NCBI GenBank assembly: GCA_050250555.1
Contig: JBFWOK010000008.1
Location: forward strand, 4,635 to 68,634
Source: Limisphaerales bacterium
GTDB taxonomy: Bacteria; Verrucomicrobiota; Verrucomicrobiia; Limisphaerales; CAIMTB01
Direction of reading: 5' to 3'
DNA: 64,000 nucleotides
A program made the translations under genes and the position numbers. Numbering within the stretch: position 1 is the first letter of the stretch; every line of letters begins with the position of its first letter. The notes beneath the pieces are model-generated. The model was not told where the DNA came from and made no database searches. It saw only the letters and a list, made by a program, of their open reading frames with translations. Of this stretch, positions 15,132 to 36,248 are shown in pieces.

Positions 15132-15200
15132 CAGGGTCGCAGGTGCGGCATCGATCCTGTACGGTCCTCCCGCACCCCCGCAACCGGCGAAAACAGAACC

Positions 15201-18964: not shown

Positions 18965-19022
18965 GCCGACGGGGAATAATGAACCGCGTTCGATTGAATC
19001 CACGCCGACCCAAGCAAATCGA

Positions 19023-19066
19023 AACCCAACCCAACCCAACCCAACGGAACCCAACCGAACCGAACC
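19023..19066. repeat. Pentanucleotide (CCCAA)n-like microsatellite tract in the sheath-gene leader
   Basis: 'aacccaacccaacccaacccaacggaacccaaccgaaccgaacc' lies in a lower-GC 195-nt intergenic region about 95 nt upstream of the sheath start codon. Confidence 0.8.
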
Positions 19067-19159
19067 TTTCGTCCGAAGTCGCTGAATTGTCTGTCTGAAG
19101 TGCGTTCAATGAATTGATTCGATCCGCCTTTCGCCACACTCAACCCCAAGGATGATCCC

Positions 19160-21643: not shown

Positions 21644-21690
21644 CCGTCCGGAACCCTTAAAGCATCCACGATTCAACCCAGGAGATTCCC

Positions 21691-22152: not shown

Positions 22153-22179
22153 CCCCGAGCGCCTGACCTTCGCCTCGGC

Positions 22180-24168
22180 ATGGCGTCGTCGATCCTCAAC
22201 GCGCCCCTGGGCGCTCCGGGCCTCTACCGCGACCCCGGCGTTCCGCTCCGCGCACTCACCGGAGTGCGGATGGACGTCGCCGCGTTCGTCGGTGTCGCCC
22301 CGCGGGGACCCGCGCGCGAACAGGTCCTGGATCCGATCCTGCGGAATTGCCGGCCGGATCCGAGGGTGCTCCGACAGCTGAGGCGGACGGTTCCCTACGC
22401 GGTGGAGAGCTTCGACGAGTACCGGCGGTTGTACGGAGGGTTTGGCGGCCCCGGTCTGCTGCCCTACGCGGTCGCCGCGTTCTTCGACAATGGCGGCCGT
22501 CGAGCCTACATCGCACGCGTCGTTCATGACTACCCGACCGCCGCGGAGAACGAGGCGCGCGTCGCCGAGGGAATCGCCGGTGGCGCCATGACCAGCGCGG
22601 GACCGCTCGCGTTGCGGGCGCGCAACGAAGGTTCGTGGGGCAATGCCTTGCGCGTCGGCCTCACGTTCACGGCGAAGCCGCTGATTCCGATCGACGTCAC
22701 CACCACCGGGATCACCGTCGCCGCCGGGGAGGCGCTGGTGATCGGCGCCCTGCTGCGGCTCACCTTCGACGACGGCTCCAGGATCCATCGCGTCGTGACC
22801 ACAGTCCGACGTGTCACTTCGGCGACCTCCGCGTCGGGAGTTCTGACCGGGACGTTCGAGACCCCGATTCCGGCGGTTCCCGAGGCGGTCGAGATTCTCG
22901 AAGGCGATTTCCGGATCGATGACGGCGACGGACGGGTCGAGGTCCACACCGGGCAGGGGCTGTCGTCGCTGCATCCCCGCTGGCTCGCGGCGACGCTCTG
23001 CTACGAGTCGCAACTCGTCCGTCCCGGGGATTCCTGGATCGACGCCTCGATCGAGCCGGACCCGACCGCTCCCGGGGAACCGTTCTGCGGTGGCGAGGAT
23101 GATTATCCGGCCATCACGCCGGAGGATTTCTTTGATCCAACTTGGAGCCCCGCCGAGGACGAACCCGGGGACGGAATCACGGCTTTGGCGGGGCTTCCGG
23201 ACCTGTCGATCCTGGTGGTCCCCGACCTTTATTCGCCGCAATCGATCGTTGGGGAGACGCCCCTCGAAGATCCCGTCGTGCCGGACAACCCGGGGTTCGT
23301 CAGATGCGGTCCGGTGGCCGCGCCGCCGTCGGCGACCGGTCCGGCGGTGGCGGATCTCGATGGGTTGCGGCTGGACCCGGAACTTCCGCAGGACCTCGCG
23401 GAGATTGAGCGGTTGCAGTCCGGGTTGGTCGGGTTCGCTTCCGAACTCCAATCCTTCATCGTCCTGCTCGATGTTCCGCCACGACTGCATTCGCGGCAGG
23501 TCCTGGCGTGGCGGGCGAAGTTCGATTCCGCGTACGCGGCGGCTTACCATCCCTGGTTGCTGGAATCACCTGGGGACGACGACCGGGACGCGCTGATCGC
23601 GGTCCCGCCGTCGGCGGTGGCGGCCGGGATCATCGCCCGGAAGGAATGGAACCACGGCGTCGCCCACGGTCCGGCGAATGAGCTGGCGCTGGCCGTGGTC
23701 GATGCGACGGAGCCCATTCCTCCCGCCTGGCACGACGTCCTTCATCCCCAGGGGATCAATGTCTTTCTGCGGGAACCGGACGGGATTCGGCTCACCGCGG
23801 CGCGGACGCTGAGTCGCGACGCCGCCTGGCGCCAGATCAGCGTGCGCCGGCTCGTGACCCTGATCCGGCGCACGATCGAGCGGCGCATGCAGTGGCTGGT
23901 GTTCGAGCCGAACAATCGCGCGCTGAGGGCCGAAGTCCGGCGACTGCTGACGGGGTTTCTCCGACGGCTTTTTCAGGGAGGCGCCTTCGCGGGCGCGACC
24001 GAGGAGGAATCGTTCTTCGTGCGGTGCGACGAGGAACTGAATCCGCGAACCGTCGTCGACGCGGGACGTTTGATCACGCACGTGGGGGTCGCGCCCGCGG
24101 AGCCCATCGAATTCATCGTTCTTCGCCTGCTGCGCGACGGCGACGGCACCCTGACCCTGGAGGATTGA
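22180..24168 (+). CDS. Contractile tail sheath protein 2 (662 aa)
   Basis: 'APGLYRD...VAAFVGVAPRGP', 'YAAAYHPWLL', 'PPSAVAAGIIARKE', 'GPANE' and 'INVFLREPDGIRLTAARTLS' are present. Confidence 0.9.
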   Translation: MASSILNAPLGAPGLYRDPGVPLRALTGVRMDVAAFVGVAPRGPAREQVLDPILRNCRPDPRVLRQLRRTVPYAVESFDEYRRLYGGFGGPGLLPYAVAAFFDNGGRRAYIARVVHDYPTAAENEARVAEGIAGGAMTSAGPLALRARNEGSWGNALRVGLTFTAKPLIPIDVTTTGITVAAGEALVIGALLRLTFDDGSRIHRVVTTVRRVTSATSASGVLTGTFETPIPAVPEAVEILEGDFRIDDGDGRVEVHTGQGLSSLHPRWLAATLCYESQLVRPGDSWIDASIEPDPTAPGEPFCGGEDDYPAITPEDFFDPTWSPAEDEPGDGITALAGLPDLSILVVPDLYSPQSIVGETPLEDPVVPDNPGFVRCGPVAAPPSATGPAVADLDGLRLDPELPQDLAEIERLQSGLVGFASELQSFIVLLDVPPRLHSRQVLAWRAKFDSAYAAAYHPWLLESPGDDDRDALIAVPPSAVAAGIIARKEWNHGVAHGPANELALAVVDATEPIPPAWHDVLHPQGINVFLREPDGIRLTAARTLSRDAAWRQISVRRLVTLIRRTIERRMQWLVFEPNNRALRAEVRRLLTGFLRRLFQGGAFAGATEEESFFVRCDEELNPRTVVDAGRLITHVGVAPAEPIEFIVLRLLRDGDGTLTLED

Positions 24169-24170
24169 CC

Positions 24171-24650
24171 ATGGCCGAATCCGATCCGCTGCTTCGCGCC
24201 TTCCGATTCCAGGTCCAATTGCGTCGGACCGACGAGGCGGGAACGGCGCTTGGAGACGGCGCTTTCCAGGAGTGCTCGGGACTCGAAGTCGAGATGGATG
24301 TCCGGGAGCACCTCGAGGGTGGGAACAACGCCGCGGTGATCCGGCAGGCGGGACGCGCGAAGTACACGAATCTCGTGCTCAAGCGCGGCATGTTCCACAG
24401 CGCCGCCGGCCGCCTCAACGCGGACCTTTGGCGCTGGATGCAGGACGCCGTCGGGAACGTCCGGCCCATCGCCCGTTACGACGGCGTCATCGAAGTCATG
24501 AGCGTCGGCGACGAGGTGGTGGCCACCTGGGAGTTCGACCGGGGCCTGCCCGCCCGACTGCGCGGACCCGAACTGAACGCCAAGACCGGCGAGGTCGCCA
24601 TCGAGGAACTGCACATCGCCCATGAAGGTCTCCGACTCGTCCTGCCCTGA
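24171..24650 (+). CDS. Tail tube protein 2
   Basis: 'FRFQVQL...FQECSGLEVEMDVREHLEGGNN', 'LVLKRGM' and 'TWEFDRGLPARLRGPELNAKTGEVAIEELHIAHEGL' make it a paralogue of tube 1. Confidence 0.85.
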   Translation: MAESDPLLRAFRFQVQLRRTDEAGTALGDGAFQECSGLEVEMDVREHLEGGNNAAVIRQAGRAKYTNLVLKRGMFHSAAGRLNADLWRWMQDAVGNVRPIARYDGVIEVMSVGDEVVATWEFDRGLPARLRGPELNAKTGEVAIEELHIAHEGLRLVLP

Positions 24651-24671
24651 CGCGATCGACCCCATCCCGAC

Positions 24672-26162
24672 ATGAGCCAGCTGGAAAAAGCCCAACTTCA
24701 ACCGATCAAGGCCGATGGTTCGACCGACGGGCCGGCGATTCCCGTTCAGTTCAACCCGGCGACGCTCAGGCTTCAGATCACGAACCAGGTCGAAGGCGGC
24801 GACACCCGGGGCCGCCAGGTGCGGCAGTACACGGGATCGAGTTCGACCCAGTTGACCGTCGAACTGATCTTCGACACCGCCGACGAGGGCACCACCCAGG
24901 CTCCGGTGTCGGTTCGATCGAAGACCCTTCAGGTCGAGCAGTTCCTCTACCCGCGCGGCGACGACAACCAGAAGCAGGCGCCCCCGCAGCTTCGCTTCGA
25001 ATGGGGCGACCTGATCCTCGAAGGCGTCGTCGAAAGCCTCACGATCGACCTCGACCACTTCGCGTCCAACGGCTTCCCGCTTCGCGCCAAGGTGGGCTTC
25101 TCGCTGAAGGAGCAGGACCGTCGCTACGAACTCAAGATCGCGGGAGACGCCGCGAACACCGACTCCGGCGCCACCCGCCCGGGCGAGGCGGGATCGGGCG
25201 CGTTGGGAACATTCAATGCGGGCTTCGGCGCCCAGGTGGGGCTCGCGATCGGTGGCGAAAGCGCCGCCGAATTCACGGCCCGCCTCGGACTCGATCCGTC
25301 CGCGTGGCGCGGACTTTCCTTCGGAGCGAGCCTGGAAGGATCCCTGTCGTTCGAAGCGGGCCTCGAAGTGGGTTTCAGCGCGGGACTCAGCGCCAACGTG
25401 GGCCTCGGAGTCTATGTCGGCGCCAGCGCGGGCCTCTCGGTTTCCCTGGAAGCGTCGTTCGGCCTTGAAGTCGACGTCGGGGTCACCGCCGTCGCCAATG
25501 TCGGTGTCAGCGCGAATCTCCAGGCCGGATTCAGTCTGGCCGCCGCGGGCGGATTGAGCGCCGCCATCGCCTCGGTCAAGACCGCCAAGGCGGACACCGC
25601 CGTGGCCGCCACCAAAACCGCCTTCGGTCTCACCGCGAGCGCTGCTTCGAACCCCGGTGCCGGCCCGGGTTCGGCAACGGGTTCCACCACCGCGGCGGGG
25701 TCGGGGTCGGGGTCGGGGTCGCGAACGAGTTCGCAGGGTGGTTCGACTGCGGCTTCCGCCGTGACCACAACCGGGGTTGCCCGACCGACATTGCCCGCGC
25801 AGACCCGGACGCCGATGCGGTTGGCGGGGATTCCGACTCCCGCGGCGCAACAAGGCGCTCCGTCCGCCCCGCCACCACCAGTCGCGGATCCGCGGGCGTC
25901 GTCGTTCGGGTTCGGCGTTCCGCTTCGGGCCACCGTGCGACCCGGCGCCGAGGCGGCCTCGTCGACCAGCCGGGGGACCGTTCCTCTCGCGGCGCGGACA
26001 GGAACCCGAAGCGTGCCGACGACCCGCGATCCCACAGTACCAGCGTGGGTGGCGTTGCCGGAGTCCTCGGTGTCGGCCAACGCGAAAACGGGCGCGCGCG
26101 GGAGCCGGCGCGGAACGCCCTGCGACTGCGCCGGACCGAACGCTCTCAAGGGGAATCACTGA
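24672..26162 (+). CDS. Tube-fold (Afp7-like tube initiator) protein with a long low-complexity G/A/S/L C-terminal region and no LysM
   Basis: The N-terminal ~150 aa ('PVQFNPATLRLQ...QLTVELIFDT', 'LRFEWGDLILEGVVESLTIDLDHF...AKVGFSLKE') is CIS-tube-like. The remainder is repetitive ('GLEVGFSAGLSANVGLGVYVGASAGLSVSLEASFGLEV') plus GS/PA-rich sequence. Confidence 0.65.
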   Translation: MSQLEKAQLQPIKADGSTDGPAIPVQFNPATLRLQITNQVEGGDTRGRQVRQYTGSSSTQLTVELIFDTADEGTTQAPVSVRSKTLQVEQFLYPRGDDNQKQAPPQLRFEWGDLILEGVVESLTIDLDHFASNGFPLRAKVGFSLKEQDRRYELKIAGDAANTDSGATRPGEAGSGALGTFNAGFGAQVGLAIGGESAAEFTARLGLDPSAWRGLSFGASLEGSLSFEAGLEVGFSAGLSANVGLGVYVGASAGLSVSLEASFGLEVDVGVTAVANVGVSANLQAGFSLAAAGGLSAAIASVKTAKADTAVAATKTAFGLTASAASNPGAGPGSATGSTTAAGSGSGSGSRTSSQGGSTAASAVTTTGVARPTLPAQTRTPMRLAGIPTPAAQQGAPSAPPPPVADPRASSFGFGVPLRATVRPGAEAASSTSRGTVPLAARTGTRSVPTTRDPTVPAWVALPESSVSANAKTGARGSRRGTPCDCAGPNALKGNH

Positions 26163-26332
26163 TGCCCGTTCATCTCGACCAACTCACTTCGGAAGTCGTT
26201 CCGGAACCGGAACCCCAAGGCGTGCCGGTTGAACCGCGCGAAGGCGCGATCGAACCGTCGCGGTTGTCGCAACTCCTCGCCCGCCTGGCGGAGGACCGGC
26301 GGCGCGTGGCGGCGGAGGGATTCGATGACTGA
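26162..26332 (+). CDS. Small (56 aa) hypothetical protein, positional analogue of Afp6
   Basis: Its start overlaps the upstream stop (TGATG), and its stop overlaps the gpD-like gene start by 8 nt. Acidic composition. No family recognised. Confidence 0.4.
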   Translation: MPVHLDQLTSEVVPEPEPQGVPVEPREGAIEPSRLSQLLARLAEDRRRVAAEGFDD

Positions 26333-27413
26333 GGCCCTTCTGGTTTCCACGGCCCCGGTGTTCGAGGTCGACGGCGAGGTGTCGGGCGACCTCGCGCGCG
26401 ACCTGCTGCGGTTGGAGGTGGAGGAGGCCACGGACGGGCTCAAGACGTTCAGACTTCAGCTCCTGGCGCAGGGGCCGAGGGCTGGGGAGATCAACGAGGG
26501 CCTGCGTTATCTGGACGGGGCGCTGCTGGATTTCGGAAAGCCGATCTCGGTGTCGATCGGACCGGCGGACGCGAGCCGGATCATTTTCGAAGGGCACCTC
26601 AGCGCGCTCGAGGTGATTCACCGGGAGGCGAAGCCGCCGGAAGTCGCGGTCTTCGCGGAGGACAAGCTGATGACGCTGCGCATGACGCGGCGATCCAAGA
26701 CCTACGAAGAGATGTCGGACGCGGATATCGCGGAGGCCATCGCCTCGGAACACGGTTTGGCGGCGGCCGTCGACGCGGAGGGTCCGACCTACGACCGGGT
26801 GCAGCAGTGGAACATGAGCGACTTGGCTTTCCTGAGACAACGCGCCCGGCTCGTCCAGGCGGAGATCTGGGTTTTGGACGACACCCTTCACTTCCAGCAA
26901 CGGGATCGTCGAACGGCCACGCGGGTGACGCTGGTTCAGGGCAATCACCTGATCGAACTCCGGGCGCGGGCCGATCTGGCGCACCAGCGGACGCTCGTGA
27001 AGGTGAGCGGCTACGATGCGGCCACGCGGGAAGCCATCGAAGAGGAAGCCGACGACTCCGTGATCTCGGGCGACGAATCGACCGGAGGCGTCACGGGACC
27101 GGCGGTGCTGGCGCGCGCGTTTGGCGAACGGGTCTCGTACCGGGTTCGAGAGGCTCCGTTGAACGGAGAAGAAGCAGTGGCGTGGGCGGGCGCCGAGATG
27201 CGGCGCAGGGCTCGGGGCTTCGTGACGGTGACCGGAATCACGCGGGGTTCGTCCGACCTGGTCGTGGGAAGCCGGGTGATCCTCGAAAACGTGGGGAAGC
27301 CCTTCGAAGGACCGCCCTACTCGGTCACGCGCGTGGTCCACACCTACGACACGGCCGAGGGGTTCCGAACCCTGTTCCAAGCCGAACGGGCCATCCTTCA
27401 GGAGGGCGCATGA
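26325..27413 (+). CDS. Phage late control gene D (gpD)/VgrG-N-like baseplate hub protein
   Basis: 'FEVDGE...DLLRLEVEE', 'SDADIAEAIASEHGL', 'YDRVQQWNMSDLAFLRQRA' and 'VTVTGITRGSSDLVVGSRV' are typical gpD blocks. Confidence 0.8.
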   Translation: MTEALLVSTAPVFEVDGEVSGDLARDLLRLEVEEATDGLKTFRLQLLAQGPRAGEINEGLRYLDGALLDFGKPISVSIGPADASRIIFEGHLSALEVIHREAKPPEVAVFAEDKLMTLRMTRRSKTYEEMSDADIAEAIASEHGLAAAVDAEGPTYDRVQQWNMSDLAFLRQRARLVQAEIWVLDDTLHFQQRDRRTATRVTLVQGNHLIELRARADLAHQRTLVKVSGYDAATREAIEEEADDSVISGDESTGGVTGPAVLARAFGERVSYRVREAPLNGEEAVAWAGAEMRRRARGFVTVTGITRGSSDLVVGSRVILENVGKPFEGPPYSVTRVVHTYDTAEGFRTLFQAERAILQEGA

Positions 27414-28075
27414 TCGGTTCCTTCGTTCCCGACGGTCAGGCGCCGAGGTACTTCGGAGTCTACCCCGCGCTGGTCACCGACATCGTCGATCCCGATCAGC
27501 TCGGGCGAATCGAAGTGAAACTTCCGTGGCTCGGCGCCGACGGCGACGCGGTTCGCGCATGGGCGACGCTTCTGTCGCCGTACGCGGACGACGACCAGGG
27601 ATTCGAGGTGCTGCCGGCGGTGGGCACGCAGGTGGTGATCGCGTTCGAGGCGGGCGACCTGCGACGTCCCTACATCCTTGGATCCGCGTGGAACGGGCGC
27701 GAAGCCCTGCCCGAAGCGCCGGAGGCCGCCAACAACAAGCGCCTGATCAAGACGCGATCCGGCAGCCTGCTGGAATTCGACGACACGGAGGGCGCCGCGA
27801 AGGTCACGCTGTCGATGCGAAGCGGGCACAAGCTGGTCCTCGATGATTCGGGCAGCGAGGTCGTGCTGACCCATTCGAACGGGTCGGTACTTCGGTTCAC
27901 CGCCGGCGGCCAGATCGAACTCCAGGCCAATGCAACCGTCGAAGTCACGGCTTCGGCGGTGAACGTCCACGCGGCGACGGCGACCTTCGACGGCATCGTC
28001 AATTGCACGACGTTGATCGCCAGCTCCGGCGTGGTCTCACCCTCCTACACCCCGGGTGCGGGGAACATCTGGTGA
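27410..28075 (+). CDS. Baseplate spike protein (gpV/gp5 OB-fold plus beta-helix tip)
   Basis: 'YFGVYPALVTDIVDPDQLGRIEVKLPW...WATLLSPYA...GFEVLPAVGTQVVIAFEAGDLRRPYILGSAWN', then beta-helical repeats and the tip 'CTTLIASSGVVSPSYTPGAGNIW'. ATGA overlap upstream. Confidence 0.8.
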   Translation: MIGSFVPDGQAPRYFGVYPALVTDIVDPDQLGRIEVKLPWLGADGDAVRAWATLLSPYADDDQGFEVLPAVGTQVVIAFEAGDLRRPYILGSAWNGREALPEAPEAANNKRLIKTRSGSLLEFDDTEGAAKVTLSMRSGHKLVLDDSGSEVVLTHSNGSVLRFTAGGQIELQANATVEVTASAVNVHAATATFDGIVNCTTLIASSGVVSPSYTPGAGNIW

Positions 28076-29697
28076 ACACCTTCGTCCATCCCTGGTTGCT
28101 GACCGGACCCTGGTACCGCTGGGGCGACTACGAGAATCCCGGTTCGGGTGATCCGTACAACGGCCTGATCGGACGCCTCGCGCCGCCGGTGTTCCAGAAG
28201 TACGACACCTCGGACCTCGTCAACGCCTTCCTCAAGGATCCGCAGCGGTCCCTCAAATTCATCGAACCCGATGATCGCGTCCGGCGGATCACGACGGGCA
28301 CGGGTGGCCACCGGTACGGGCTCACCACAACGGGGGTTCGGAAGCTCTACCTCGACACGCACAAGAGGTTCTATCTCGTCGTCTGCGAGCTGCATTGCGA
28401 TCTGCCCGGGCTGCCGAACGCGTCGCGCGAGGACGTCTGCGAAGCGGGGTTTGTCGTGCGCCGGCGCGTGGCGCGGATTCCCGAAGGGGGCGCGGCGATC
28501 ACGCGGAAGCAGTTGGGCGCGGTCACCCGGCTTCGCGCCCAGCTGGCTGAGTTCGAGGAACTCCCGGTGGGGATGAAGGCGGACGCGACGCTCGGATTGA
28601 GGGCGCGGGTCGTGGCGGAGTACCGGGAGGCCCAGAGCCGCCTGAAGGCGACCGCCCAGGAGTTCGGGATCCGGTTCGCGCTGGAAGGCTGGGTCCCCGA
28701 CGCTTTCGAGGGCATGGGCTCGTGGGAGGAGGTCGAAACCCATCCCCAGACGGTTTGCGAGCACGTTTACCCGCTCTATCCGCTCATCGCGGATCCCACG
28801 AAGCCGGATCATTCGGGAGGCGGGCGCACGCTGTACTTCGGGTTGATGCCGACGGGGAGCGCCGACGTCGATGCCGAGGGGGATCCCCGTTACGACGATC
28901 GCAGCCTGTACCACGTCCGGTGCTTCGTTCGGCGGCACAATCCGAAATGTCCGAAGCGGCGGGAGCGGCCCGATTGCCATGGCGAGATCGTTTGGAGCCT
29001 GCCGACCGAGCACTACCAGCTCGCGAACCCGTTCGATCTCTCGGGGACGAGCAACCGGCCGATCAACATTCTCCTTCCGGACCTGCCCGCGCTCGAAGCG
29101 CAGGTCGCCACCCTTCAGCCGGGGCAGGGCGCCCCGGTTCGAATGATCGCCCCCGAAGGTTCCAACCTGGAGGTCAACGTCCCGGACGGCGACCTCGGCG
29201 CGATCTCCAAGGGCGGCCCGCCGGGGGCCGCGATCTGCAGTTTCTCGATACCCCTCATCACGATCGTGGCGTCGTTCGTGTTCCGGCTCTTCCTGCCCAT
29301 CGTGATGCTCCTCTTCGGGCTGTGGTTCATGCTGAAGATCAAGTTCTGCATCCTGCCCAGCATTGATCTCAGCGCCGACGCCGGGCTCGCGCTGGAACTG
29401 GAGGGCGCTCTCGGACTCGACGTCGACGTGTCCCTCGACGTCGCGCTCGTCGGGCGCCTGGGCGCCGTGGTCGAACCCACAAGCGGCCTGACCTTCGGCG
29501 AACTCCGGGACCAGAACGGGGCCGCGTATGAAGGAAGACCGCTCGCGGAAATGATCGCCGCGCAGGCGACCGATTTCTCGGAAAGCCTTCCGCCCGACCT
29601 CGACGTCGGCACACCACCCGCCGAGGGGATCCGCCGTCAATTGCCGTCCGCCACCACCGGCCTCGAATACGAGGCGAGAATCGAGGTGAAATCGTGA
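28072..29697 (+). CDS. Hypothetical 541-aa protein with two C-proximal transmembrane helices, embedded in the baseplate operon
   Basis: GTG start overlaps the spike stop (GTGA), and its stop overlaps the gp25 start (GTGA). The hydrophobic hairpin 'ICSFSIPLITIVASFVFRLFLPIVMLLFGLWFMLKIKFCILP' is encoded at about 29230-29360. No family recognised. Confidence 0.6.
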   Translation: MNTFVHPWLLTGPWYRWGDYENPGSGDPYNGLIGRLAPPVFQKYDTSDLVNAFLKDPQRSLKFIEPDDRVRRITTGTGGHRYGLTTTGVRKLYLDTHKRFYLVVCELHCDLPGLPNASREDVCEAGFVVRRRVARIPEGGAAITRKQLGAVTRLRAQLAEFEELPVGMKADATLGLRARVVAEYREAQSRLKATAQEFGIRFALEGWVPDAFEGMGSWEEVETHPQTVCEHVYPLYPLIADPTKPDHSGGGRTLYFGLMPTGSADVDAEGDPRYDDRSLYHVRCFVRRHNPKCPKRRERPDCHGEIVWSLPTEHYQLANPFDLSGTSNRPINILLPDLPALEAQVATLQPGQGAPVRMIAPEGSNLEVNVPDGDLGAISKGGPPGAAICSFSIPLITIVASFVFRLFLPIVMLLFGLWFMLKIKFCILPSIDLSADAGLALELEGALGLDVDVSLDVALVGRLGAVVEPTSGLTFGELRDQNGAAYEGRPLAEMIAAQATDFSESLPPDLDVGTPPAEGIRRQLPSATTGLEYEARIEVKS

Positions 29698-30086
29698 GAA
29701 CTTCGTTCGCCCGCCTCGGACGAGGCTGGGGTTTCCCGGTCGTTCCCGACCCGGAGACCCGCGGGCTGCCCTGGGTGGACGGTCCCGAGGGCGTGCGTCA
29801 ATCGATCCTGATCCTGCTCGAGACCGAGCCCGGAGAACGGGTCATGCGGCCCACGTTCGGCTGCGGACTTCGCCGGCACCTGATGAAACCCAACAACGCG
29901 ACCACGCGCGCCCTCATCCAGCGCGAAGTGGAACGCACCCTGGCCGAGTTCGAACCGCGCATCGCGCTCCAGGGAGTCCGCGTCGATCCCGGCGAGGATC
30001 CGGCGCTCGTCCTCATCGAGATCGCCTACATCCACCGACGCGACGGCCGGAAGGACAACCTCGTCTATCCTTTCTACCTCGAGTAA
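29694..30086 (+). CDS. GPW/gp25-family baseplate wedge protein
   Basis: 'GRGWGFPV...GVRQSILILLETEPGERVMRPTFGCGLRRHLMKPNN' is the gp25 signature. Confidence 0.85.
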   Translation: MRTSFARLGRGWGFPVVPDPETRGLPWVDGPEGVRQSILILLETEPGERVMRPTFGCGLRRHLMKPNNATTRALIQREVERTLAEFEPRIALQGVRVDPGEDPALVLIEIAYIHRRDGRKDNLVYPFYLE

Positions 30087-30090
30087 CGCC

Positions 30091-32250
30091 ATGCCCATCA
30101 CCGCCCCCATCCTCGACGACCGCTCCTACCAACAGCTCCGGGACGAGCTGGTCCGGCGCATCGCCGTCTACACGCCCGAGTGGACGAACCACAACCCGAG
30201 CGATCCCGGCATCACGCTCATCGAGCTCTTCGCCTTCCTCGGCGAGAATCTGCTGTATCGCTTCAACCAGATCCCCGAGGCCACCCGGATCGAGTTCCTT
30301 CGGCTTCTTCAGATTCCACTGCGCGCCGCCCAGCCGGCCAGGGCCCTGGTCGCCATGACCACCGATTCCGCCACCGGAACGCTGGTTCCCCAGCTCACCG
30401 AAGCGCGCGCCGGCGCCCTGGCTTTCGAAACCCGCACCGAGGTCCACGCCTGGCCGGTGTCCGTCGTCGCCGTCGCCCGCGTCCGGGCGGCCGCTCCCGA
30501 TCCCGACGCGGAACCCGAAAGCCATGAATACGTCCTGCGCACCCTCGACGCCCTCGGAGGACTCGAAACCGGGGAATCCGCGGACTACTACCAGAACCAG
30601 TTGGTCTCGAAGGACGACTCCGAGCCGCCGGTCGATTTCGGCGCCACGGTCGATGGCATGCTCTGGGTGGCGGTTCTCGCGGAGAAGAACGCCGACAAAT
30701 CGGAACTCGCCGACGGGCTGCTGAATCTTGGCTTCGTTCCCGACGCCGAGGTTCCGTCCATGGCCGATGTCGATCCATGCCCCGGCGACGGTCTGCGGAC
30801 GACCGGTCCGGCGGTGGAGTGGCAGATCACGTCGGCGACGCCCGCCGCCGATGGCCAGCCCAGGTACATCACCGTCAAAGTCGAAGGCGATTCGACGCGT
30901 GGTCTCAGCCAGGAAGGCGTTGTCCGGATCCGCCTGCCCAGGAAGGCGTCGGAGTTCGGCGTTGTGCCGGCGTCGGATCCGGACCTGCTGGGAGCGGGGG
31001 ATCGTCCTCCGGCGCTGGATGACGAGACCGAGGCGAAGGTCCTGTTCTGGCTGCGGGCGTTCCGACACGATGGCAGCCGGTTCGGCAAGGTCCGCCACGT
31101 CGCCGTCAACGCGACCGAGGTCTTTCAGAGGCGCCTGGCCACTCCGCAGGTTCTCGGCACGGGAAACGCCCAGCCCGGACAGGAGTTCGCCCTGAACCAC
31201 GCGCCCATCCTCGCCGGAAGCCTTCGCCTCGAAGTCGAGGAATCCGGCGTGTGGTCGACGTGGACCGAGGTCGATGGCTTTCACGCCAGCGGGCCCGAGG
31301 ACCGCCATTTCGTGGTGGATCTCGAAGCGGCCCGGGTGCGCTTTGGAAACGGACTGCGCGGCAGCGTGCCCCAGATCGGGCAGCGGGTCCGGGCGCTGGA
31401 ATACCGGTACGGCGGCGGATCCGCCGGCAACGTGGCTTCCGGGGCCATCACCAAACTCCCCGGCCATCCCTCGGTCAAAGTTTCAAACCCGATCGCCGCG
31501 TATGGCGGCGCCGACACCGAGACGCTGGAGAGCGCCCTGGACAGAATCCCCGGCGAACTGCGAAGGCGCGACCGGGCCGTGACCGCGGATGATTTCAGGG
31601 AACTGGCGCTGGCCACGCCCGGCGCGAACGTGGGTCGCGCCGAATGCCTGCCCAGGTTCCACCCGCCCACGCGGACCGGCGAACGCGCCGGCATCGTGAG
31701 CGTCGTGATCTGGCCCACCGAGGACAAGATCAACCCCGGGGCGCCGCGCCCGGAACGCAACCTCCTCCGGTCGGTCTGTGAATGGCTCGACCAACGGCGA
31801 CTCGTGACGACCGAGCTGTACGTGATTCCGCCGACCTACCGGAAGGTCGCCGTCGCGGTGGGATTGCAGGTCAAGGACGGTTACGGAATCGAGGCCGTTC
31901 GGAATTGGGTTGAGCTGGTCATCCGCCAGTACCTGGCTCCGTTGCCGCCCTATGGACCCGAGGGGCAGGGGTGGCCGCTCGGCCGGAGGGTTCACGGACC
32001 CGAACTCGAAGCCGCCGCGCTCCAGGTGGAAGGGGTCGAATTCCTCGAGGAACTCACGGTGGCCGGCTGGGACGAGACCCAGGCCGCCTGGATCCCGGGC
32101 ACGGTTGAACTCGAGGACTACGAAGTGCCCGAACTGACCGAGATCGCCGTCGTTGAAGGGCCCCTGACCTTCGCGCCGGGTGACGCGATCAGTCCGCCTC
32201 CGGCGCCCACCGTTCCCGTTCCCATTCCCGTCTTGCGGGAGGAGTGCTGA
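30091..32250 (+). CDS. Baseplate J-like (Afp11/gp6-like) baseplate assembly protein
   Basis: 'LDDRSYQQLRDELVRRIAVYTPEWTNHNPSDPGITLIELFAFLGENLLYRFNQIP' and C-terminal 'YRYGGGSAGNV', 'GGADTETLESALDRIPGELRRRDRAVTADDFRELA'. Confidence 0.8.
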   Translation: MPITAPILDDRSYQQLRDELVRRIAVYTPEWTNHNPSDPGITLIELFAFLGENLLYRFNQIPEATRIEFLRLLQIPLRAAQPARALVAMTTDSATGTLVPQLTEARAGALAFETRTEVHAWPVSVVAVARVRAAAPDPDAEPESHEYVLRTLDALGGLETGESADYYQNQLVSKDDSEPPVDFGATVDGMLWVAVLAEKNADKSELADGLLNLGFVPDAEVPSMADVDPCPGDGLRTTGPAVEWQITSATPAADGQPRYITVKVEGDSTRGLSQEGVVRIRLPRKASEFGVVPASDPDLLGAGDRPPALDDETEAKVLFWLRAFRHDGSRFGKVRHVAVNATEVFQRRLATPQVLGTGNAQPGQEFALNHAPILAGSLRLEVEESGVWSTWTEVDGFHASGPEDRHFVVDLEAARVRFGNGLRGSVPQIGQRVRALEYRYGGGSAGNVASGAITKLPGHPSVKVSNPIAAYGGADTETLESALDRIPGELRRRDRAVTADDFRELALATPGANVGRAECLPRFHPPTRTGERAGIVSVVIWPTEDKINPGAPRPERNLLRSVCEWLDQRRLVTTELYVIPPTYRKVAVAVGLQVKDGYGIEAVRNWVELVIRQYLAPLPPYGPEGQGWPLGRRVHGPELEAAALQVEGVEFLEELTVAGWDETQAAWIPGTVELEDYEVPELTEIAVVEGPLTFAPGDAISPPPAPTVPVPIPVLREEC

Positions 32251-34409
32251 TGCCGTTGCCCCGACCATTCGCGTTGGTGCGGACCGAAGACCAGTGGCGC
32301 CGCGCGGCCCACCTGGGAACGGCCCTGGTCGGGGATGTGGTGCAGTTGTCGTGGACGAACGAGCCGCGCCAGGACCTGCCACCGGGTGCGCCATTGCCGG
32401 GCGCCGGACTGGCTTTCGACGAGCATTGCCGCCTGTTTCATAGTGTTCCCGAGGAGGGTCGCGTCGAACGGCTGCTGTGGGCCGCCGCGGGAAAATCCGC
32501 GCCGCTCGAACTCTTCGCTCAACCCGAATCGGAGGTTCTTGGCGATTTCGAGGCGTCTCATCCTGCGGAACCAATCCTCGATTCCCCCCGCGGCCTCGCG
32601 GTGGATCCGCACGAACGCCTGTTCATCGCGGAAGCCGGTCGGCGCCGGATCCTGGTCTTCGATCTCTGGACCCGGCGGCTGCTCCGTGTGGTTCCGATGC
32701 CCGGGCGCCCCGTGGACCTGGCCTCCCACGGCCCGGTGATCCATGCCGTCCTCGAATCCCCGGACCGCATCGTGACCCTGAATGCGGTGTCGCATCTTCG
32801 GATCGAAACGCCGTCCGGAGGGTTCGACGGTCCCGCTCGCGTCGCGGTGTCGCCCGCGGGAGAACGTCTGCTGCTCGAGCGCGCCGGCACGGCGCAGGCC
32901 CGGATCCTCAGTCCCGGGCGGCCTCCGATCGAAGTGCCTCGCGCCACCGATCTGGAGTTCCTGTCGTCGGAGGAACTCGTGGTCGCGCGGCATCCCGGGG
33001 AGGACTTCCTCCGGTTCCGGGTTTCACCCGGCGCCTTGGAGGAAGTGCTTCCGCTCAAGGCCGCGCGCTATGACGGGCGCGGGATCGTTCGGACGCCGGA
33101 CGGTCGGATCGCGTTCTGGACCGACCTCGGCGTGCGTCACGCGGTGGCCGCGCGCGTGCGTTACGGGACCCGGGGCAGGGTCACCACGTTCCGCCTCGAC
33201 AGCGGGAACTTCCGCACGGTGTGGGGCCGTCTGTTTCTCGACGCCTGCGTCCCGAGGGAAACCAGGATTCTCGTCCACACGGTCTCCACCGATGAGACCT
33301 CGGCCGAACCGACGCTTCCGCGGACCGGACCGGAGAACGCGGTCACCCTGGAGATCCGACGACCCGACCTGTCCCCGGCCATGCCGCCGCTTTCCCTCGT
33401 GCCCGGCGACGATGAAGTCGTCCAGACGCTTCACCGCCGCGAGCGGGGGCGCGAACTGCCTTGGACGCCGTTCGCTCCGGATGATCCGATGGCAACCTAC
33501 GAGGCACCGATTCGCGCCGCGCCGGGGCGGTATCTCTGGGTCACCGTTCAACTGGAGGGCAACACCCGGTTCACCCCGCGATTCCGGTGCCTTCGAGCCG
33601 AATACCCGACTCACGATCTCCTCCGACGCATTCCGAAGGTCTACTCGCGACAGGCGGACCAGGCCGATTTCCTGCGGCGCGCGCTGGCGTCCTTCGAGGG
33701 CGTCCTTTCGCAACTGGACGCGGAAGCGGTCGCCCGGCACGCGTGGATCGATCCGCGCGGGGTGCCGGAGGAGGCGTTGCCCTGGTTGGCGGGGTTTCTC
33801 GGGCTCGCGCTCGATCCGCGCTGGCCGGTCTCCGTCCGGCGCCAACTCATCGAGGAATGCACCTGGTTGTTCCGGTTCCGGGGGACCGTGCCCGGGTTGC
33901 TGCGGTTCCTCCGAATCTGCCTCCAAAGCGAGGTCATCCTGATCGAGAAGTTTCGCGTCCGGGGACTCGGCGGCGCCCTCGTCGGGGAGTCGTCATCGCT
34001 GGAAGCGAACTCGGTGCTAGGAGCGGGTTTTCGCATTGGCGGCGCTATCGGCACTTCGGAGTCGGTCGAAGTCCGGGCCGGCACGGACGACGCCTTCGAG
34101 ACGCACGCCCACCGGTTCAGCGTCATCATTCCGCGGGCGCTCGACGAGGATCAGCTCGCGGCCGTGGCGCATCTCCTCGAGGTCCATCGTCCCGCCCACA
34201 CGCTGGTCGAGGTCTGCACAGTCGGCGCCGGAATGAGGGTGGGCCGGGGTCTGCACGTCGGATTGACCTCCCTGATCGGCAGGACGAGCGGGTTCCAGTC
34301 CCTCCAGCTCGACAACGCCGTGCTGGGCCGCGGAGCCATCGTGGGACGACCGGGACCCGGGATTTCCCCCGGCGCGAGCCGGACCGGATACGACACGCGG
34401 ATCGGATAG
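32250..34409 (+). CDS. Baseplate wedge protein with a P2 gpI-like phage tail domain (Afp12-like)
   Basis: 'ADFLRRALASFEGVLSQLD', 'LPWLAGFLGLALDPRWPVSVRRQLIEECTWLFRFRGTVPGLLRFL' and 'AHRFSVIIP' resemble the phage-tail-protein-I family. The start overlaps the upstream stop. Confidence 0.65.
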   Translation: MPLPRPFALVRTEDQWRRAAHLGTALVGDVVQLSWTNEPRQDLPPGAPLPGAGLAFDEHCRLFHSVPEEGRVERLLWAAAGKSAPLELFAQPESEVLGDFEASHPAEPILDSPRGLAVDPHERLFIAEAGRRRILVFDLWTRRLLRVVPMPGRPVDLASHGPVIHAVLESPDRIVTLNAVSHLRIETPSGGFDGPARVAVSPAGERLLLERAGTAQARILSPGRPPIEVPRATDLEFLSSEELVVARHPGEDFLRFRVSPGALEEVLPLKAARYDGRGIVRTPDGRIAFWTDLGVRHAVAARVRYGTRGRVTTFRLDSGNFRTVWGRLFLDACVPRETRILVHTVSTDETSAEPTLPRTGPENAVTLEIRRPDLSPAMPPLSLVPGDDEVVQTLHRRERGRELPWTPFAPDDPMATYEAPIRAAPGRYLWVTVQLEGNTRFTPRFRCLRAEYPTHDLLRRIPKVYSRQADQADFLRRALASFEGVLSQLDAEAVARHAWIDPRGVPEEALPWLAGFLGLALDPRWPVSVRRQLIEECTWLFRFRGTVPGLLRFLRICLQSEVILIEKFRVRGLGGALVGESSSLEANSVLGAGFRIGGAIGTSESVEVRAGTDDAFETHAHRFSVIIPRALDEDQLAAVAHLLEVHRPAHTLVEVCTVGAGMRVGRGLHVGLTSLIGRTSGFQSLQLDNAVLGRGAIVGRPGPGISPGASRTGYDTRIG

Positions 34410-34424
34410 CCAGCCAAACCAACG

Positions 34425-34566
34425 ATTCATGAACCGAGATTCTCTCACGGAGGCACGGAGGCACGGAGGTCCGAGAATGGATTCCTTGTCCCTTCGTGCC
34501 TCCGAGACTTGGTGGGATGCCCCTCGGGTTCATGGATCCCACGCGCGAGTCACAACCCATTGACGC
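34425..34566. repeat. Type-A REP-like hairpin element, inverted orientation
   Basis: 'ttcatgaaccgagattctctcacggaggcacggaggcacggagg...cttcgtgcctccgag...cctcgggttcatggatcccacgcgcgagtcacaacccattga' is the reverse complement of the 17315 type. Confidence 0.85.
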
Positions 34567-34571
34567 TCTCC

Positions 34572-36248
34572 GTGCACGCCATCCGCATCAAGAAACTGAG
34601 CGCCCGCTACCACCTGCCACCGTCGGCGGGCGGGCAGAAGCGACGCCTCGATGGATTGCTGGCGTCCGCGCTGCTGGAAGCTCTCGAACCCGCCCTTGAC
34701 CGTGTTGGTTTGGGATCCGACGAACATCTCTGCATCCGGCATCTGACGGTTCCGGTCCGGTTGCGTCTGTCGGCCCCGGATCCAAGGCTGGTCGACACTT
34801 GGGGCGATGCCTTGGGGCGGGCGATGACCCGGGCGGCGGAGCTGGGGCTTCGCGGCCGGGATGCGAATCCGTCCACCGAGATGGTCTGGTTCGCTTCGAC
34901 CGCCCACGCGTTCGTCGATCTGGGTCGGCGGGTTGCCCGTCACGATCTGCGCCACGCGTGGGCCTGGCGGCAACTGGATCTCTGGCGCGCGGAGGAAGGG
35001 GTCTCGGCGTCAGGAGCGATCCGGGAGTTCCTGAGGGCGCTCCTCCGAAATCCCGAACGGATCGTGTCCACGTTCCGTGCCCTGGCCGGGACTTCCGCGC
35101 TCGGCGAGCTGGCATCCCGGCTGGATGCGGATCATTGGATCGCTTTGGTCGCCGCCGCGCTGGAGAGCGCCGGCGTTGACCTCCGTGTGGCGGATCTCCG
35201 GAACGACCCACGGTCAAGAACCGGTGACCGGGACGGGGCTCGCGAGGATCCAAACGAGGGGCTGCTCGATGAAGGCGGTCGGGGCGCGCGTTCGGCCGGG
35301 GGAGCCGTTCGAAGAGGGCGGTCCTTTGTATCGTCGCTTCAGGTTCGATCGGGAATTGGACGCGTCGTTCCGTTGGCTTCCGTTCCTGCTTCCGCCCGTC
35401 GTGCCCTGGCCTGCCTGATCCTGCTCGACGCCGACCCTGGATGGACCCTTCGCCCGAGGCGCGCGTGGTTGAACTGGCTGGACGAAATGGGACGGGCGCG
35501 ATCGGGAGGCGAGGACCCGGTTGGACCGGAACCGCGGACCCGTCGGCCCGGTGACCTGACCGAGGGAATGGGGGACGAAGGTTCGACGACCCGCGGTGCA
35601 GGCGCTGGCGACCTCGTGGACGAGGAGCGGGAACGCGAATCCGATGAGCCGACGCCGGGATCGGGGCCCGCGGACGCCGCCGACGGGATGGAAGAGGCGG
35701 ATCCGGGTGGTGAGTTCGACGACGCGAAGGACGACCCGTCGCCCGATCCGCGGCGAAGGGGGCGAACGAGGCATGGCGGTTTGTTGTTTGTTCTCAACCT
35801 TCTCAACACCACCGATTGGCTCGGGCGATTGGCATCGGCGCTTCCGGGTCGCGGGCTTCGCTGGGTATTGAACCAATTGGCCATGGCTTTGGTCCCGGTG
35901 GAGTCGTCGGATCCGGCGGCCTTGGCGTTCGCGGGTCTCGCTCCGGGCTCCGCCGAGTTGTTGGAGGACGAACCTCCCGCGGAGCCGGAGGAACGCGAAA
36001 GCGTGGCGGTTCTCGCGGACCGCATCCGGGGCGAATTGGCGGGCGTGCTGGAGCGGCTCGAACTGAGGCCGGAAGCCGCGGCGGAATTCGTGTGCGCGCG
36101 ACCGGCGGAGATTGTGGCGGACCCGGGATGGATCGAGGCCCGGTTCGCGTTGAAAGACGTGTCGACCGACCTGCGGCGCGCGGGTCTGGACAAGGACCCC
36201 GGGTACCTGCGGTGGCTAGGGTGCGTAGTGAGGTTCGCCTATGAGTGA
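34572..36248 (+). CDS. Putative tape-measure/tail-length protein (Afp14 analogue); hypothetical
   Basis: It lies directly upstream of, and overlaps by 8 nt, the AAA+ ATPase. The start 'VHAIRIKKLSARYHLPP' (GTG 34572) is chosen because the ATG at 34509 lies inside the repeat. Central acidic/low-complexity region. The assignment rests mainly on position, and the start is uncertain. Confidence 0.4.
   Translation: MHAIRIKKLSARYHLPPSAGGQKRRLDGLLASALLEALEPALDRVGLGSDEHLCIRHLTVPVRLRLSAPDPRLVDTWGDALGRAMTRAAELGLRGRDANPSTEMVWFASTAHAFVDLGRRVARHDLRHAWAWRQLDLWRAEEGVSASGAIREFLRALLRNPERIVSTFRALAGTSALGELASRLDADHWIALVAAALESAGVDLRVADLRNDPRSRTGDRDGAREDPNEGLLDEGGRGARSAGGAVRRGRSFVSSLQVRSGIGRVVPLASVPASARRALACLILLDADPGWTLRPRRAWLNWLDEMGRARSGGEDPVGPEPRTRRPGDLTEGMGDEGSTTRGAGAGDLVDEERERESDEPTPGSGPADAADGMEEADPGGEFDDAKDDPSPDPRRRGRTRHGGLLFVLNLLNTTDWLGRLASALPGRGLRWVLNQLAMALVPVESSDPAALAFAGLAPGSAELLEDEPPAEPEERESVAVLADRIRGELAGVLERLELRPEAAAEFVCARPAEIVADPGWIEARFALKDVSTDLRRAGLDKDPGYLRWLGCVVRFAYE

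Follow-up and report, generated by a model that had tools for sequence, protein, structure and literature searches.

Every characterised CIS spike cited here is either tipped by a PAAR-like protein or self-sharpened. The former group comprises spikes capped by PAAR proteins (Afp10/Pvc10/Cis10, T4 gp5.4, T6SS PAAR), while P2 gpV and the R2 pyocin spike are self-sharpened; P2 gpV has a split hub/spike arrangement and no separate PAAR gene. According to the part of the survey by Chen et al. 2019 considered here, the PAAR gene of Afp, afp10, follows the gp25 gene afp9, as judged by gene numbering (PMC6899500). The same part of the survey gives afp10 as missing only from eCIS subtype IIb, in which afp8 takes the form of separate gp27-like and gp5-like ORFs, afp11 is single, afp12 is present, and subtype-specific conserved genes without known domains are carried (PMC6899500). 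Several CIS clusters also encode membrane proteins, namely Cis13 of the tCIS, with a C-terminal transmembrane helix (PMC8894136), the haloarchaeal Hbor_38620, with six transmembrane helices (PMC11566945), SalCis19, with three transmembrane helices and a hydrolase (10.1101/2025.06.01.657177), and Streptomyces CisA, which is bitopic and whose expression is toxic to E. coli (PMC12237407). In each studied case, such a conserved protein marks a machine that works at the membrane of the producer and not a free particle, and the anchors of the membrane-attached CISs known so far are peripheral or separate. A different kind of membrane contact is provided by the prePAAR effectors of T6SSs, spike-tip proteins with transmembrane domains and Eag chaperones (PMC7773334), which set a precedent for tip-mounted proteins whose hydrophobic segments are meant for the target membrane.

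The locus studied here lies in a 64-kb window, i.e., the whole stretch of DNA analysed (64,000 nucleotides), from a Limisphaerales bacterium. Between the genes for the spike protein (V) and the gp25-like protein, it carries a gene, hereafter X, that encodes a protein with a long hydrophobic stretch. The features of the locus are as follows.

17505..26332, + strand: upstream CIS genes, in the order Pvc16_N, unknown ORF, sheath, tube, second sheath, second tube, CIS_tube and a ~56-aa conserved ORF
26325..27413, + strand: gp27-like hub (Pfam Phage_GPD; start refined)
27410..28075, + strand: spike V, 221 aa, gp5-like OB fold and beta-helix (Pfam Phage_base_V, E 3e-23)
27998..28072, + strand: C-terminal extension of the spike, ~aa 197-221, NCTTLIASSGVVSPSYTPGAGNIW (conservation, structural alignment)
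28072..29697, + strand: gene X, 541-aa protein of an unannotated CIS-specific family (GTG start, TGA stop; codon bias; family size)
28072..29226, + strand: globular body of X, aa 1-385 (AlphaFold2 model, conservation)
29227..29358, + strand: putative hydrophobic helical hairpin of X, aa 386-429, AAICSFSIPLITIVASFVF-R-LFLPIVMLLFGLWFMLKIKFCILP (hydropathy, conservation, AlphaFold2)
29359..29697, + strand: acidic variable tail of X, aa 430-541 (composition, AlphaFold2 block-mean pLDDT)
29694..30086, + strand: gp25-like baseplate wedge protein (Pfam GPW_gp25, E 8e-25)
30091..34409, + strand: baseplate J-like (30091-32250) and P2 gpI-like (32244-34409) wedge proteins (Pfam)
34509..45963, + strand: downstream CIS genes, in the order 579-aa ORF, AAA+ ATPase, two Cis13-like N-terminus proteins, methyltransferase/HExxH and eCIS_core (DUF4157)

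Gene X overlaps both of its neighbours: its GTG start at 28072 shares the GTGA at 28072-28075 with the TGA of the spike gene, and its TGA stop shares the GTGA at 29694-29697 with the GTG start of the gp25 gene. The reading frame is open back to a TTG at 28003 in the ORF listing, and the alignments of X homologues start at M..HPW, in agreement with the start at 28072. In a window of 66% GC, its GC3 of 0.85 against a GC2 of 0.47 is what a real gene would show. The order spike V, X and gp25 was found in 59/59 related loci, wherever the contig extends that far, from Acidobacteriota, Verrucomicrobiota, Planctomycetota, Actinomycetota, Gemmatimonadota, Pseudomonadota, Myxococcota and Bacillota-labelled MAGs (at least eight phyla). 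Gene calls and annotation agree with this order, the adjacency of V and X is kept even in loci in which two inserted genes separate X from gp25, and overlapping start and stop codons around X are seen in distant phyla. The initial annotation had placed a 541-aa ORF between the spike and gp25 genes and had coupled it to the baseplate components; its coordinates and both GTGA overlaps were verified, and the association of X homologues with CIS loci holds in all of the loci compared. Taken together, synteny, gene calls and annotation support X as a fixed, tightly coupled member of the spike/baseplate block. The median identity within the X family is 44%, as compared with 50% for the gpI-like protein and 51% for sheath 2, and its divergence is like that of structural proteins. 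The order of the upstream CIS genes is likewise repeated in two related loci (L057 and L058).

The gene content of the locus includes a split Phage_GPD (26325-27413)/Phage_base_V (27410-28075) pair, a single Baseplate_J gene and a single Tail_P2_I gene by Pfam, and no PAAR gene. By gene content, the X lineage matches subtype IIb as set out in the part of Chen et al. 2019 considered here, and this part describes neither gene X nor its hairpin. In the literature, we found no characterised subtype IIb system, no characterised member of the X lineage and no transmembrane protein at the PAAR position.

A PAAR match was sought with Pfam in the plus-strand ORFs of the locus, and none was found; neither the window nor 60 related loci gave a match to an HMM based on two PAAR proteins of sister lineages. 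Both results bear out the earlier claim that the locus has no PAAR-like gene, although a PAAR gene may lie elsewhere in the genome, beyond the 64-kb window. The sister lineages were sampled via a plasmid collection only and are represented by two split-spike PAAR loci, those of Halogeometricum borinquense and Burkholderia sp. THE68, in which the genes run hub, V, PAAR and gp25; the PAAR gene thus sits at the exact slot of X, directly after the gp5-like spike and before gp25. PAAR and X appear to be mutually exclusive in the loci examined. The statement that X stands at the position usually held by PAAR is correct for these split-spike loci of lineage II but does not extend to Afp, where afp10 comes after afp9. 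We also considered X as a PAAR homologue and rejected this possibility: X has no Pfam match, the hhalign probability between the X family and the two sister-lineage PAAR proteins is 0.06%, and no Foldseek match was obtained. At 541 aa against ~100 aa for the conical beta fold of PAAR, X is about five times larger than PAAR proteins and differs from them in having a hydrophobic hairpin and an acidic tail, with no sequence, profile or structural similarity. As far as these comparisons can tell, X is a replacement of PAAR in the gene slot and not a homologue of it.

The spike itself resembles spikes that carry a PAAR cap. Spike V is encoded separately from the gp27-like hub, and its best structural relatives among solved structures, all of them PAAR-capped, are CIS and T6SS spikes. 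Like P2 gpV, the locus has a split hub and spike without a separate PAAR gene, but V is much closer to the gp5-like spikes of CISs and T6SSs (Foldseek, 5e-10 to 9e-06) than to the self-sharpened spikes of R2 pyocin (1e-04 to 5e-04) and gpV (8e-03). A self-apexed spike of the P2 gpV type was rejected, given that the gpV match was weak and that an HxH motif sought at the C-terminus of V was not found. What distinguishes V is its C-terminal extension, which is nearly invariant in X-bearing loci and missing in the PAAR-bearing sister spikes compared. The extension has no counterpart in solved spikes, with which the alignments stop at ~aa 185-200, and the last 12 residues of V have a pLDDT below 50 in the monomer model.

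The X family comprises more than 1,000 homologues of 450-620 aa (~1,168 clusters at 50% identity) and has no family name. Candidate cultured carriers are Rhodococcus opacus strain 9 (plasmid NZ_CP095404.2, WP_160093747.1), Microbulbifer rhizosphaerae CECT 8799 and Pseudomaricurvus alcaniphilus MEBiC06469, and perhaps Plasticicumulans lactativorans, in which a homologue of spike V was found. At a cutoff of E <= 0.01, X has no match in Pfam or NCBIfam, and a PHROGs scan gave none either; its profile gave only chance matches (E >= 0.3) to PDB sequences, and its model gave no Foldseek match at E <= 0.001 in the PDB and BFVD, the tCIS baseplate entry 7b5h being among the PDB entries without a sequence or fold match. 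The weak top Foldseek matches are membrane-fusion proteins, aligned via an alpha-hairpin, with TM-scores of at most 0.21 normalised by target length. No match was found in GenBank phages by tblastn, and the IMG/VR scan also yielded no relative among viral contigs, so that within the GenBank phage and IMG/VR sets, X does not occur as a phage tail gene. The AlphaFold2 monomer has a mean pLDDT of 84.6 and a pTM of 0.83 for the whole chain, with pLDDT above 90 across most of aa 31-330. The body is predicted to be globular and without a known fold; it contains long beta strands and shows conserved Cys/His positions along with a strongly conserved N-terminus (HPWLLxGPWYRW), while an alpha-helical hairpin at ~aa 138-198 is variable and dispensable, being missing from some homologues. 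The tail contains 20 D/E against 7 K/R and ends in a conserved LEYExRVEV-like sequence. Its block-mean pLDDT is 70-72 at aa 431-460 and 79-91 at aa 461-540, and in the model it is predicted to pack back onto the body. The initial annotation had divided the protein into a soluble N-terminal region of ~380 aa, a hydrophobic hairpin and an acidic tail, and this division agrees with the borders given above. A role as a tape measure was considered as well and dropped, since X is a beta-rich, globular protein and another conserved ORF, of 579 aa, is available.

The hydrophobic stretch at aa 386-429 is the most characteristic part of X. It is continuously hydrophobic over the 43 residues at aa 386-428, with a 19-residue Kyte-Doolittle mean above 1.6 throughout and a peak of 2.41, and is the sole such segment in the core locus, where globular cores peak at ~1.7. 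The stretch was found in 238/240 full-length homologues and is the best-conserved part of the protein, with the lowest column entropy (0.57 bits). Invariant C389 and C426 flank the hairpin, P394, P409 and P429 are invariant, position 405 at the turn is K/R in 69/88 sequences, and no acidic residue occurs over 43 successive residues in nearly all sequences. A Rhodococcus homologue with 35% overall identity has an almost identical hairpin, and the hairpin is the same in monoderm and diderm producers. AlphaFold2 places helices at 393-406, 408-415 and 418-423 (14, 8 and 6 residues) with block-mean pLDDT of ~53-71, the pLDDT minimum of X falling exactly at this stretch. The two-helix hydrophobic hairpin proposed earlier is thus a family-wide feature, with the length and hydrophobicity needed for a bilayer span, and is putatively transmembrane as judged by hydropathy and by helices that AlphaFold draws with moderate confidence. 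Whether it forms a classical hairpin of two spans is not certain, however, because these helices are short and the second half is interrupted by G/Q/N at 416 and by K422/K424. The hairpin is too conserved for covariation analysis.

X resembles Cis13, CisA, Hbor_38620 and SalCis19 in being a conserved membrane-type protein of a CIS cluster, but their genes occupy the fibre position or lie away from the core block, whereas X lies between the spike and gp25. Its predicted topology also differs: with the tail predicted to fold back onto the body, the hairpin would have its two ends on the body side, unlike in these four proteins (CisA and Hbor_38620 being compared by description only). The prePAAR effectors have N-terminal transmembrane segments, a PAAR domain and a toxin, whereas X has neither a PAAR domain nor a C-terminal toxin.

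Fixed synteny, the PAAR slot, the lack of PAAR and the family-wide hairpin make it reasonable to infer a non-canonical relation to a membrane, and to this extent the proposal of an anchored or otherwise non-canonical mode of action is supported. The whole X lineage probably contacts a membrane in a manner not yet described. From the sequence data, we tentatively favour, at somewhat less than an even chance, a reading in which X is a spike-proximal core subunit with a lipid-embedded hairpin at the baseplate tip, most likely for docking to the producer membrane. X would be produced together with the spike, from the slot used for PAAR in sister lineages, and its body would bind the distal end of the spike/hub, to which the conserved C-terminal extension of V would be matched. 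The hairpin, embedded in a lipid bilayer, would couple the spike end of the baseplate directly to the membrane. The cytoplasmic membrane of the producer is the most likely one because so hydrophobic a stretch normally inserts co-translationally, and the outcome would be a tip-docked, membrane-attached machine, T6SS-like or tCIS-like, and not a free particle. By analogy, docking is also suggested by the conserved membrane proteins of CIS clusters, which so far mark membrane-attached action. Three observations speak against docking: plain lipid anchors usually keep hydrophobicity rather than sequence; a K/R at the turn of the hairpin would end up on the opposite side of the producer membrane, contrary to the positive-inside rule; and the hallmarks of released eCISs are all kept (Pvc16-type cap, AAA+ ATPase, Cis13-like N-terminus proteins and DUF4157 cargo), although Cis13 is also present in the anchored tCIS and in the haloarchaeal system. 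The near-invariance of the hairpin would imply a role more specific than that of an anchor, for example, oligomer packing or triggered insertion. It is possible, if doubtful, that X replaces PAAR functionally and at the same time acts as a membrane element, sitting as a single copy or trimer on the spike extension with a cysteine-stapled hairpin in the bilayer. In one version, the spike tip would dock to the producer membrane through a minimal "membrane complex" unlike T6SS TssJLM, Cis13 or CisA; in the other, a released particle would carry a pre-loaded hydrophobic warhead for the target membrane.

Target-membrane insertion is the main rival to producer-membrane docking. Here, X would cap or surround the spike tip of a released particle instead of PAAR, its hairpin shielded by its amphipathic acidic tail or by oligomerisation until contraction drives it into the target membrane, where the inserted hairpin would aid penetration or spike release; prePAAR transmembrane domains and the buried hydrophobic hairpins of colicin-type or diphtheria-type translocation domains would be comparable. 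We consider this rather unlikely, even though X occupies the PAAR slot in the absence of PAAR, X and the spike tip co-vary, and a hairpin so extremely conserved in sequence typifies fusion or insertion elements and not anchors. The identity of the hairpin in monoderm and diderm producers, the resemblance of the loci to ordinary eCISs with fibre-like proteins and DUF4157 cargo, the predicted folding of the tail onto the body and the existence of T6SS spike-tip proteins with transmembrane domains (PMC7773334) point in the same direction. Against it, no Eag/DUF1795-type chaperone gene or other shielding partner was found among the scanned ORFs of the locus, a stretch with a Kyte-Doolittle mean of ~2.2-2.4 would likely be captured by the insertion machinery of the producer, the K/R at the hairpin tip would need to cross the target bilayer, and the fold of X shows no similarity to PAAR. 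It is improbable that the stretch is instead the buried core of an oligomer, a helical bundle on a three-fold or six-fold axis in the baseplate, with X being an extra soluble baseplate/hub protein. Near-invariance at almost all positions, including three prolines and a threonine, would suit protein-protein packing, as would the short AlphaFold helices in place of two 20-residue spans and the pTM of the whole chain, but 43 residues without an acidic residue and a mean of up to 2.4, against the ~1.7 maximum of globular cores in the locus, would be unusual for such a core, and the pLDDT is lowest exactly there.

Two further readings separate X from the structural particle or arm it as a toxin. 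Class II holins have two-helix hydrophobic hairpins, and no lysis cassette was found among the scanned ORFs, as might be expected if X were a holin-like release/lysis protein or a membrane-bound assembly platform left behind. Holins are small and poorly conserved, however, whereas X homologues have 450-620 aa and a conserved body of ~385 aa, and X lies within the spike/baseplate block, where its start and stop codons overlap those of its neighbours in distant phyla. X also lacks the profile of a holin of ~70-150 aa beside an endolysin, being far larger, and a search for lysozyme/endolysin families among the scanned locus ORFs gave none; we regard a function as an accessory factor outside the particle as very improbable. 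A spike-loaded, membrane-disrupting toxin would explain the adjacency to the spike gene and the hydrophobic hairpin, and another CIS membrane protein, CisA, is toxic in E. coli (PMC12237407). Each locus has one X orthologue, which diverges like a structural protein and lacks a polymorphic toxin module at its C-terminus, no immunity-like gene was found next to X, and separate DUF4157 proteins are encoded in the loci, and so this reading is the least probable of those weighed, with hardly any chance of being right. The suggestion in the initial annotation of a spike-associated effector is weakened for the same reasons, X being universal in its lineage and the DUF4157/eCIS_core cargo being separate.

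Producer-membrane docking by X thus remains our tentative choice. If the reading of X as PAAR replacement and membrane element is true, it would mean that a CIS lineage that spans at least eight phyla and is common in soil and water bacteria has a tip of new architecture. This lineage has exchanged PAAR for a ~500-aa protein without a known fold and with a near-invariant membrane-type hairpin. The location of X would tell whether the systems of subtype IIb are released as particles or act as membrane-docked guns, and how a spike couples to or crosses a membrane without PAAR. Because the family has no Pfam or NCBIfam model, domain-based CIS surveys miss X; the survey by Geller et al. 2021 was built on Pfam domains, and the family was therefore invisible to it. 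X would be a simple marker gene by which to recognise the lineage. As for the other conserved ORFs of the locus, the ~56-aa ORF between CIS_tube and the hub, which matched no family, might be the afp6/Cis6 equivalent, and the 579-aa ORF between the gpI-like and AAA+ genes would lie roughly at the place of afp13/afp14 in Afp.

The window has a GC content of 66%. A complete contractile injection system (CIS) locus occupies its plus strand at about 17505–45963.

Gene order of the CIS locus in the window
Plus strand: Pvc16_N cap-like protein, then an unknown ORF
Plus strand: sheath, tube, second sheath and second tube
24672–26162, plus strand: CIS_tube protein, 496 aa
26162–26332, plus strand: conserved ORF of ~56 aa
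Plus strand: gp27-like hub (Phage_GPD)
Plus strand: gp5-like spike V, 221 aa (Phage_base_V)
28072–29697, plus strand: X, from GTG 28072 to TGA 29697
Plus strand: gp25, Baseplate_J-like and P2 gpI-like proteins
34509–36248, plus strand: unknown ORF, 579 aa, between the gpI-like and AAA+ genes
Plus strand: AAA+ ATPase, then two proteins with a Cis13-like N-terminus
43055–44356, plus strand: methyltransferase/HExxH protein
44641–45963, plus strand: eCIS_core (DUF4157) protein, 440 aa

X, a 541-aa ORF, overlaps both neighbors by GTGA, in accordance with the initial annotation. Its codon-position GC (GC3 0.85, GC2 0.47) has the pattern of a real gene, and the homologue alignments begin at the identical methionine (GTG 28072). 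Hydropathy and composition confirmed the hydrophobic region and acidic tail described in the initial annotation: the former is a single, continuous stretch (residues 386–428; Kyte-Doolittle 19-residue mean up to 2.41), a kind of segment that no other core CIS protein of the locus has, and the tail after it contains 20 D/E vs 7 K/R. X had no match in Pfam, NCBIfam or PHROG and no relative among PDB sequences. A word-indexed search returned >1,000 homologues, none with a functional name, and an exhaustive profile search gave 1,168 clusters at 50% identity (E ≤ 0.001; 252 with E ≤ 1e-30), mostly 450–620 aa long.

AlphaFold2 produced a confident model of X from an 88-sequence input (mean pLDDT 84.6, pTM 0.83), for which Foldseek found nothing at E ≤ 0.001 in PDB or BFVD; within the reach of these searches, the predicted fold is new. 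Four parts make up the model: a body rich in beta structure, a long hairpin of alpha-helices (~aa 138–198) that is wholly missing from some homologues, a hydrophobic region of one short strand and three short helices (block-mean pLDDT ~53–71), and the tail, whose block-mean pLDDT of 70–91 indicates that it folds back against the body. Both flanks of the hydrophobic hairpin are thus predicted to be parts of one folded body.

The hydrophobic hairpin was kept in 238 of 240 full-length homologues and is the most conserved part of X (mean column entropy 0.57 bits vs 0.9–2.7 elsewhere), so that, judged from the alignments, it appears universal and invariant. C389, F391, P394, L395, T397, A400, F402, L408, P409, L417, L421, C426 and P429 are identical in all 88 aligned sequences; K/R occurs at position 405 in 69 of these and at 424 in all 88, and 416 is G/Q/N. 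A Rhodococcus homologue, 35% identical to X overall, is nearly identical over the hairpin. If both halves are antiparallel, C389 and C426 would lie together at its base. Such conservation is unusual for a plain lipid anchor and suggests a role in specific packing or triggered insertion.

Scanning one genome per species, we found 56 X loci in Acidobacteriota, Verrucomicrobiota, Planctomycetota, Actinomycetota, Gemmatimonadota, Myxococcota, several Pseudomonadota (the cultured Microbulbifer rhizosphaerae and Pseudomaricurvus alcaniphilus among them) and one Heliomicrobium-labelled MAG. The initial observation was real, and more general than was visible from the sequence alone. The order hub, spike V, X, gp25, J was found in every locus whose contig extends far enough, and was borne out when genes were called independently and labelled from Pfam; on a Rhodococcus opacus megaplasmid the RefSeq annotation shows the same order, with the X homologue, a "hypothetical protein", overlapping by 4 nt on both sides. 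In the divergent metagenomic locus L064 (9593–12864), X and gp25 are separated by two additional genes, one for a 920-aa MsddA-like protein and the other a 168-aa ORF, and X still lies directly 3' of the spike gene with a 6-nt gap. X had no relative among GenBank phages or IMG/VR contigs. Its median identity across related loci (44%) is comparable to those of the gpI-like protein (50%) and second sheath (51%), and clearly higher than that of the 579-aa unknown (33%). Given its constant gene order and structural-protein-like divergence, X behaves like a structural gene that is fixed in this CIS lineage, most closely tied to the spike gene.

Two related loci in which spike and hub are likewise split, on Halogeometricum borinquense pHBOR03 (a clade IIa CIS, PMC11566945) and in Burkholderia sp. 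THE68, have the order hub, V, PAAR, gp25, J. In its own lineage X, a core, spike-linked gene, occupies exactly the slot that PAAR has in these two, in agreement with the position first assigned to it. The reported lack of a PAAR-like gene also held: no plus-strand ORF of the locus matched a PAAR family, the genes tile this strand with no space for an additional 90-aa gene, and an HMM from the two sister-lineage PAAR proteins recovered those two and nothing in the 64-kb window or 60 X-bearing loci. A diverged PAAR was ruled out as the identity of X (profile-profile probability 0.06%). A different CIS lineage, on Paracoccus versutus pTAV3 (L061, 6640–7116), lacks both PAAR and X in the interval from spike to gp25, which is filled by an Ala-rich hypothetical protein of 158 aa; the spike ends with an HTHPT motif reminiscent of self-sharpened spikes, which may represent a third solution for the spike tip.

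According to Chen et al. 2019 (PMC6899500), subtype IIb is the only subtype without afp10, has a split afp8, a single afp11 and a retained afp12, and carries subtype-specific genes without recognisable domains. The window's locus agrees with this profile in gene content, and X very probably belongs to those unnamed genes. That such subtype-specific genes exist had already been noted by Chen et al.; the novelty lies in what kind of protein X is, the signature of a widespread CIS lineage. Our literature search found no paper characterising this lineage, a subtype IIb system or X, and the survey by Geller et al. was Pfam-based and hence unable to detect X.

Spike V is highly conserved in the lineage (75–87% identity among 32 aligned homologues; median 73% across related loci). 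Its ending, FDGIVNCTTLIA..GVVSPSYTPGAGNIW, is nearly invariant across X-bearing loci, Rhodococcus included, and is missing from the spikes of Halogeometricum and Burkholderia, whose loci carry PAAR, and from the X-less Paracoccus spike. Profile matches to solved spikes (AlgoCIS, tCIS, Pvc8, Afp8, VgrG) end at ~residue 185–200, leaving this extension without a solved counterpart; the last 12 residues were unstructured in the monomer model. The fold is much closer to these PAAR-capped spikes than to the spikes of P2 (gpV) or R2 pyocin, which are self-sharpened. At the sequence level the tip co-varies with X, indirect evidence for a lineage-specific partner, for which X is the obvious candidate.

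We propose that X binds the distal spike/hub and places its hairpin in a bilayer, so that the machine would be docked via its spike end. The producer's cytoplasmic membrane is the most likely site, a tentative preference, because so hydrophobic a stretch is normally inserted during synthesis and because all cluster-encoded CIS membrane proteins studied so far accompany a membrane-attached mode: tCIS Cis13 (PMC8894136), Hbor_38620 (PMC11566945), SalCis19 (10.1101/2025.06.01.657177) and CisA (PMC12237407). The main competing possibility, which we consider somewhat unlikely, is that particles are released with a shielded hydrophobic warhead at the tip, meant for a target membrane. Such particles are favored by a hairpin that is invariant and occurs in monoderm as well as diderm hosts, and by an eCIS gene set that is ordinary in all other respects, with prePAAR effectors that have transmembrane domains as a precedent (PMC7773334); however, no Eag-like chaperone gene was found among the locus ORFs scanned. 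It is improbable that the stretch forms a buried, non-membrane oligomer core, more so that X is a holin-like or assembly accessory, and we give least credence to X being a toxin. 

Elsewhere in the locus, the ~56-aa ORF overlaps the hub start and had no match in a family search; ORFs of 55–60 aa occupy the equivalent place in the X-bearing loci L057, L058 and L064 and on the Rhodococcus plasmid. Judged by its position, the ORF may correspond to the Afp6/Cis6 spike plug, which according to Chen et al. (PMC6899500) is kept in subtype IIb. The Pfam model covers only residues 3–150 of the CIS_tube protein, the remainder being a long Ala/Gly/Ser-rich low-complexity region; in its place the Halogeometricum and Burkholderia loci encode, just 5' of the hub, a LysM-domain protein, whereas no LysM domain was detected in the window's locus. 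The first sheath protein (19160–21643, plus strand) has 827 aa vs 614–619 aa in L057 and L058, and was matched over >60% of its length in just 2 related loci, suggesting a large extra N-terminal or inserted domain specific to this locus. The conserved 579-aa ORF, the quickest-evolving syntenic gene, lies roughly at the place of afp13/afp14 in Afp and had no match in a family search. The ORF at 43055–44356, just 5' of the 440-aa DUF4157 gene, carries a class I SAM-methyltransferase domain and, in its C-terminal part, an HExxH motif (VVHELAHVILEH; weak Peptidase_U49 match); its product is a possible cargo or effector. A second DUF4157 protein (1506 aa; 47430–51950, plus strand) contains a stretch of strong hydrophobicity around residue 791, and the ORF between the two DUF4157 genes (46037–47413) matched prolipoprotein diacylglyceryl transferase (LGT) weakly and has a hydrophobic segment in its N-terminal part. 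Outside the CIS locus, the window encodes a 1030-aa fusion of a Ser/Thr protein kinase with an RDD membrane domain (56416–59508, plus strand) and a 703-aa GntP-family permease (14790–16901, plus strand), the permease domain of which begins only at residue 270.
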